Of a stretch of 64,000 nt of DNA, positions 51,409 to 51,474 are shown piece after piece. The first letter of the stretch is position 1, and the number at the start of each line of letters is the position of its first letter. This DNA comes from a virus (taxonomy: Duplodnaviria; Heunggongvirae; Uroviricota; Caudoviricetes): the IMG/VR virus record IMGVR_UViG_2778261268_000002; one strand, given 5' to 3'. The position numbers and the translations under genes were made by a program. The notes below the pieces were generated by a model that was not told the DNA's origin, did not search any database, and worked only from the letters and a program-made list of their open reading frames with translations.

Positions 51409-51474
51409 ATTGCTCTAATAATTCCATATTTTTAAAACGTGATGTACACTCATCACGTTTTTTATTAGAGCAAT
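51409..51474. promoter_or_regulatory. Bipartite inverted repressor operators flanking a hairpin/terminator
   Basis: ATTGCTCTAATAATTCC (51409-51425) and inverted TTTATTAGAGCAAT (51461-51474) around AAAACGTGATG-TACACT-CATCACGTTTT. Confidence 0.5.

Follow-up and report, generated by a model that had tools for sequence, protein, structure and literature searches.

C1 operators Op86a and Op86b of a P1/P7-type phage-plasmid genome and the probable terminator that lies between them

Two inverted copies of a 17-bp motif bracket a terminator-like hairpin at 51409-51474 of the window, by which we mean the whole stretch of 64,000 nucleotides analysed from the virus record IMGVR_UViG_2778261268_000002, and this arrangement raises the question of which protein reads the motif and of what a hairpin does between two of its sites. 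A preliminary description of the DNA had taken the scattered copies of the motif to be the operators of a single repressor, and the pair at 51409-51474 to be a bipartite operator built around the hairpin.

A dispersed 17-bp motif in a P1/P7-type genome

The consensus of the C1 operator is the asymmetric 17-bp sequence ATTGCTCTAATAAATTT, and 22 such operators are dispersed over the P1 genome (PMC8546580, in whose reference list the primary C1 operator mapping papers are found). With up to three mismatches allowed, this consensus matches nine sites in the window, at 16233 (+), 17904 (+), 34089 (+), 37365 (+), 37376 (-), 47785 (-), 51409 (+), 51458 (-) and 53551 (+), as compared to 0.41 expected, and none of 100 shuffled sequences reached nine; the motif frequency is thus above expectation. 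The exact pattern ATTGCTCTAATAAATWT is present in three copies (34089, 37365 and 53551) and was absent from all of 100 shuffles. The positions at which the preliminary description had placed the motif proved right to within 1-3 bases, and every site on its list is real; its inverted copies exist, although as full 17-mers two of them start at 47785 rather than 47786 and at 51458 rather than 51461, and it had missed two annotated operators, namely Op83 and a remnant of Op55, which carry four and six mismatches to ATTGCTCTAATAAATTT, respectively, as compared to 0-3 at the nine sites. Altogether the window holds 11 C1 operator sites at nine loci.

A position weight matrix, the means by which the preliminary description had proposed to check the motif, was trained solely on C1 operators outside the window. 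Eight window sites score at least 18.4 with this matrix, the best score per simulated window being 14.6 on average and 21.0 at most, but Op83 and Op86b, at 14.4 each, are too degenerate for the matrix and not separable from noise; Op86b is distinguished by its exact core (13/13) and by orthology, and Op83 likewise by core and orthology. At a loose threshold (score of at least 9) about 19 background matches are to be found per window. Three weak operator-like sequences without annotation, at 22279-22295 (-; AATGTTCTAATAAACTA), 41905-41921 (-; ATTGCATTAATAATCCT), directly past the ban stop codon, and 58925-58941 (+; ATGACACTAAAACATTT), have scores of 11-14, which is no better than the best matches in simulated sequence.

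To judge by its sequence, the window is a P1/P7-type (Punavirus) phage-plasmid genome. Between 50400 and 52600 the identity to phages P7, SJ46, RCS47 and P1 amounts to 99.3-99.7%, and alignment of the whole window with P7 (AF503408), which spans the invertible C-segment to a point just short of lpa, yielded blocks of 88-99% identity, most of them above 94%, with several modules replaced; in comparison with P7 and P1 together, blocks of the window are 97-99% identical, and the named operators stand at orthologous positions. The blastn comparison with P7 gave no match for 13776-16235, 27888-30429, 57674-59462 and 59920-60916, and the P7 segments without a counterpart in the window include its IS903 copy (P7 92007-93063). 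The antirepressor genes and the C4 antisense RNA (16431-16516, an Rfam match) are located inside the window, the end of which corresponds approximately to P7 coordinate 96575, whereas c1 (100091-100942 in P7), coi, Op94 and Op99a-e fall past its 3' end; c1 is expected on the full replicon, and lxc presumably belongs to the part of the P1 map that the window does not cover. Taken together, the Rfam matches, which are the C4 antisense RNA, its a1/b1 target element and three tRNA genes of the ban operon (16310-16362, 16431-16516, 38051-38123, 38129-38201 and 40190-40262), make up the set expected for P1/P7.

At each orthologous position the P1 and P7 GenBank records carry a protein_bind feature for 'phage repressor C1', and on the basis of annotation, orthology and the literature the motif copies are operators of the P1/P7 C1 repressor. 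The window agrees with P1 at every site listed in the preliminary description with the exception of one base of Op88, where it agrees with P7. Op51 (Oc4; 16233-16249, +; AATGCTCTAATAAATTT), which is identical to P1 Oc4 and differs from P7 in its first two bases, is situated upstream of the c4 RNA, icd (16564-16785) and ant1/ant2, while Op53 (OrepL; 17904-17920, +; TTTGCTCTAATAAATTT), identical to P1 and P7, controls kilA-repL (17990-18790 and 18820-19665). The remnant of Op55 (Orlf; 19669-19685, +) reads ATTGCTCTAATctggag as compared to ATTGCTCTAATTATAAC in P1 and P7, the first 11 nt being retained and the 3' half swapped at a mosaic junction, with P7 homology stopping at 19679. Op68 (Odmt; 34089-34105, +), again identical to P1 and P7, controls uhr-hrdC-dmt (34177-37374; hrdC is of the rdgC family), and the bivalent operator Op72ab (Obanab; 37365-37392), composed of Op72a (37365-37381, +) and Op72b (37376-37392, -) with a 6-bp overlap, controls the ban helicase operon. 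Op82 (O26; 47785-47801, -; ATTGCACTAATAATTTT), identical to P1 and P7, is positioned between gene 26 on the minus strand and pmgL on the plus strand, both of which it controls. Op83 (Oppp, Op(hdm) in P7; 48692-48708, -; TATGCACTAATTAATTT) equals the P7 site, is one base off P1 Oppp, and precedes the pmgN..ppp..pmgQ operon. Op86a and Op86b are treated below, and Op88 (OpmgT, Op(hea) in P7; 53551-53567, +; ATTGCTCTAATAAATAT), the first base of which is the last base of the stop codon of the pap open reading frame (53045-53551), controls pmgT. The preliminary description had assigned the antirepressor, kilA-repL, rdgC-dmt, helicase-side and accessory operons to the control of one repressor, and the same operons are named in the annotations of P1 and P7.

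Layout of the Op86a/Op86b locus

The interval 51409-51474 reads, in order, ATTGCTCTAATAATTCC-ATATTTTT-AAAACGTGATG-TACACT-CATCACGTTTT-TTATTAGAGCAAT, and over the surrounding 121 bp the window, P1 (AF234172) and P7 (AF503408) agree at 100% of positions, so that the element is, base for base, that of both phages, with the same flanking genes (pmgQ/hdmD on one side, pmgR/shtA and pmgS/shtB on the other), orientation and spacing. The P1 record describes 51409-51425 as the monovalent C1-controlled operator OpmgRa, formerly Op86a, controlling the expression of pmgR and pmgS, and 51458-51474 as OpmgRb/Op86b, and the P7 record has Op(sht[a]) and Op(sht[b]) at these positions. The former names cited in the P1 record imply that the pair had been mapped earlier. 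From this identity it is virtually certain that 51409-51474 holds the C1 operators Op86a (+; ATTGCTCTAATAATTCC) and Op86b (-; ATTGCTCTAATAAAAAA), inverted relative to it, both assigned to pmgR-pmgS. The 'bipartite operator' of the preliminary description is borne out in that two inverted C1 sites are present; P1 nomenclature, however, treats them as two monovalent operators, a bivalent operator being defined by 17-mers that overlap by 6 bp at an 11-bp offset, whereas the offset between 51409 and 51458 is 49 bp.

Op86a begins 2 nt past the stop codon of the pmgQ/hdmD open reading frame, which ends at 51407, and downstream of the operator pair follow pmgR (51489-51707, +), an essential gene (PMC9024508), and pmgS (51709-52971, +), both taken from open reading frames and the P1/P7 annotation. 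A sigma-70 promoter, PpmgR (51410-51438, +), is predicted in the P1 record with its -35 sequence TTGCTC at 51410-51415, which places it inside Op86a, and its -10 sequence TAAAAC at 51433-51438. The literature that was searched, which did not extend to the P1 genome paper, contained nothing on Op86 and no C1-binding data.

As the preliminary description had claimed, the two inverted copies bracket a hairpin, and folding supports its reality. The terminator-like element occupies 51434-51466 (+) and consists of an 11-bp stem (51434-51444 paired with 51451-51461), a 6-nt loop (51445-51450) and the T-tract TTTTTTATT, the first four Ts of which (51458-51461) also close the stem. The hairpin proper (51434-51461; AAAACGTGATG-TACACT-CATCACGTTTT) has a folding energy of -13.4 kcal/mol (z = -6.6), its stem being a 7-bp GC-containing core extended to 11 bp, and the operator arms add a further 13-bp inverted repeat outside it, with which the whole 76-nt fold attains -26.9 kcal/mol (z = -9.7). 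The 3' end of Op86b (AAAAAA) is the complement of the T-tract, and Op86b departs from the consensus at positions 15-17, AAA instead of TTT, because this end is the T-tract of the putative terminator (51458-51466). A single stretch of DNA, 51458-51466, thus appears to serve both operator and terminator.

The hairpin and the readings that it allows

A stem-loop containing G+C directly before a U-tract, situated downstream of the end of a co-directional gene (26 nt separate the pmgQ stop codon from the hairpin) and maintained as a structure, has the features of a Rho-independent terminator. The d'Aubenton-Carafa d-score of the window hairpin is +10.7 on the plus strand and -20.7 on the minus strand, and across all three lineages compared it ranges from +10.7 to +13.6 on the plus strand and from -18 to -75 on the minus strand. 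A simple consensus terminator scan did not call the hairpin, probably as a result of the extension of its stem through A/T pairs, which shortens the tail. Dual C1 sites and Rho-independent terminators are features of existing P1 maps (PMC8201110). The hairpin carries no terminator feature in the P1 and P7 records, an uninformative omission given that the P1 record shows no such feature in the approximately 23 kb inspected. Published RNA-seq studies of P1 report gene-level trends only, not transcript ends, and the literature searched yielded no 3'-end or Term-seq data for this phage.

Comparison of related elements was more informative on the structure. A total of 687 plasmid and 20 phage records contain the Op86a/b interval, and three divergent lineages, represented by Cronobacter phage JK004 and the Salmonella plasmids pCVMN1543 and p21-SA00706-0, were found by BLAST with the flanking genes, not by the motif. 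Relative to the window, pmgQ, pmgR and pmgS of these lineages are 65-75% identical and the 5' untranslated region approximately 27%, whereas the core of Op86a is identical at 13 of 13 positions and that of Op86b at 12 of 13, and conservation of the cores against a background of 65-75% suggests that the operators are under selection. The stem of the Salmonella lineage, AAAACATGGTG/CACCATGTTTT, has two pairs changed on both sides (G-C to A-U and A-U to G-C), these compensatory changes being confined to one clade and representing perhaps just one or two events. A further 120 loci, the source of most of the aligned variants, came from a pattern scan of viral contigs, and as the pattern fixed the operator arms, arm conservation in these loci is by construction. 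Of 24 distinct variants, 22 are exactly 66 bp in length and two are 67 bp. Among the 22 variants of 66 bp the inner helix is 97% paired, as compared to 41-58% when the whole structure is slid to other registers, and 13 one-sided changes keep a G.U pair on the plus strand versus seven that break the pair, a substitution pattern that fits an RNA hairpin read rightward. The compensatory changes, the strand-specific score and the invariant 66-bp length are evidence in favour of the hairpin as a conserved rightward terminator between Op86a and Op86b, and we regard it as probable that it functions as such on the plus strand.

A reading in which the palindrome works as DNA, by extruding as a cruciform or otherwise shaping the helix and so phasing two cooperatively bound C1 sites, without being an RNA terminator, would fit the retention of the 66-bp length where the flanks have diverged to about 70% identity. 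Between the centres of the two operators lie 49 bp, which at about 4.7 helical turns is out of phase, and subtraction of the 28-bp palindrome leaves 21 bp, or about two turns; the two sites also face each other as do those of bivalent Op72ab. Against this, the one-sided changes fall mainly where a G.U pair is kept on the plus strand, although in extruded DNA they would be mismatches in both arms, and the terminator score is strongly strand-asymmetric, with a U-tract after the stem and a location just past a stop codon, the classic position of a terminator. An 11-bp AT-rich stem is moreover short for cruciform extrusion in vivo, and the P1 annotation has monovalent sites, all of which makes a purely DNA-level role very unlikely. 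Somewhat less improbable, though still unlikely in our view, is a role of the RNA within the pmgR mRNA or a read-through transcript, either as an element that governs processing or stability, for example an RNase III site or 5' stabiliser, or as a regulator of pmgR translation. Such a role would draw on the strong fold of the 76-nt RNA in which the operator arms are paired, and on the position of the pmgR Shine-Dalgarno sequence (AAGGTG) and ATG (51489), 7-15 nt beyond the structure. The outer helix, however, never varies and so lends no covariation support, its conservation being fully explained by binding of C1 to DNA; the annotated transcription start is inside the structure, and termination at the U-tract would precede formation of the outer helix.

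That the repeats arose by chance in AT-rich sequence, or that they are the terminal inverted repeats belonging to some small mobile element, draws some support from the AT-rich nature of the motif, from the abundance of loose matrix matches noted above and from a scan of species-representative genomes for the inverted pair, which returned two Escherichia (P1-type) matches, no new lineages and, for a 20-nt version of the pair, chance matches to 12 unrelated genomes in 596 Gb. The excess of sites over expectation, the orthology to annotated C1 operators and the conservation of the cores against their more variable flanks led us to reject this explanation, to which we attach a negligible probability.

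The best overall explanation, and one that we hold with good confidence, combines C1 operators, a terminator and a nested promoter. C1 acts through asymmetric 17-bp sites scattered over the genome and thereby silences lytic operons in the plasmid prophage. Rightward transcripts of pmgN-pmgO-pmgP-ppp-pmgQ would end at the hairpin and its U-tract, while pmgR-pmgS would be transcribed from the promoter with its -35 sequence inside Op86a and a start predicted near 51445, in the hairpin loop. Placed approximately 7 nt past the annotated -10 sequence, such a start would give a transcript without the 5' arm, and the pmgR transcripts would escape the terminator because the 5' arm is left out. In the lysogen, C1 with its corepressor Lxc would occupy Op86a over the -35 sequence, and also Op86b, at about +13 to +29, so as to block both initiation and early elongation of pmgR-pmgS, and the U-tract of the terminator would double as the AT-rich 3' end of Op86b.

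Within this explanation the nesting of the promoter in the terminator exactly as annotated is the part on which we are slightly closer to doubt than to belief. PpmgR is a predicted and weak promoter, its -10 sequence lacking the conserved final T and being worse in JK004 (TGAAGC), and a consensus promoter scan did not call it; that an essential morphogenetic gene should have a weak promoter and a strong terminator directly before it is, moreover, somewhat awkward. In a published CRISPRi study, knockdowns of pmgO-pmgQ were not polar on the essential pmgR, an outcome in keeping with an independent promoter, but direct knockdown of pmgR was scored as non-essential as well, so these data are uninformative (PMC10695390). 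A more elaborate version, in which Op86a, hairpin and Op86b form a composite switch of fixed geometry, always 66 bp, with terminator, pmgR promoter and two C1 sites deliberately interleaved so that C1 controls both initiation and read-through from upstream, possibly by cooperative C1-C1 contact across the palindrome, seems to us unlikely.

Relation to known operators and mosaic junctions

The C1 operator network of P1 and P7 has been mapped since 1987, and the network and the flagged pair Op86a/b are both already known and annotated in GenBank. The value of the finding is that of a positive control, in which a real regulon was recovered from raw sequence and correctly tied to its operons; what the present analysis adds are the comparative evidence for the terminator, the U-tract that doubles as the end of Op86b, and two mosaic junctions at C1 operators.

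In its two inverted face-to-face sites, its one predicted promoter and its operator-supplied -35 sequence TTGCTC, Op86 resembles Op72ab (Obanab) and Op99ab (Oc1ab) of P1, from which it differs in that these bivalent operators overlap by 6 bp (11-bp offset), whereas the sites of Op86 are 49 bp apart with a hairpin and U-tract in between. The lambda repressor CI blocks lytic promoters by covering their -35 and -10 sequences, and the overlap of prophage repressor sites with lytic promoter elements at OR and OL is a likeness to C1; in lambda, however, the operators bind dimers symmetrically and lie together at the immunity region. The C1 sites are asymmetric and dispersed (PMC8546580). In P1 and P7 the C1 regulon belongs to a tripartite immunity composed of ImmC (c1/coi), ImmI (c4-icd-ant) and ImmT (lxc), and as in the window one repressor acts on ATTGCTCTAATAAATTT, at about 22 sites on the ant, kilA-repL, dmt, ban, lpa and morphogenetic operons (PMC8546580), only part of which, with 11 sites at nine loci, the c4 RNA and ant, is held by the window.

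A further sequence at 48681-48697 (+; CTTAAAATAATAAATTA) overlaps Op83 at the 11-bp face-to-face offset that characterizes bivalent Op72ab, and resembles the degenerate half-site Oc1b (ACGAAAATAATAGATTT). Its matrix score of 11.3 is inside the noise range; Op83 may have a cryptic second half-site here.

When aligned with P7, this P1-like genome shows two mosaic junctions whose positions coincide exactly with C1 operators. Upstream of Op51 the window and P7 differ in sequence, and P7 homology is regained at 16235, where the 5' edge of this operator lies. At the other junction, homology to both P1 and P7 breaks off at 19679, within Op55, the 3' half of which has been replaced together with the downstream rlfA/rapA module. 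Conserved operator cores may act as the boundaries at which modules recombine. The replacement for rlfA/rlfB (rapA/rapB) comprises open reading frames at 19929-20984 (+) and 21631-22263 (-), and encodes a ParA/MinD-like ATPase of 351 amino acids (Pfam AAA_31, E = 5.9e-15; CbiA) and a protein of 210 amino acids without a Pfam match.
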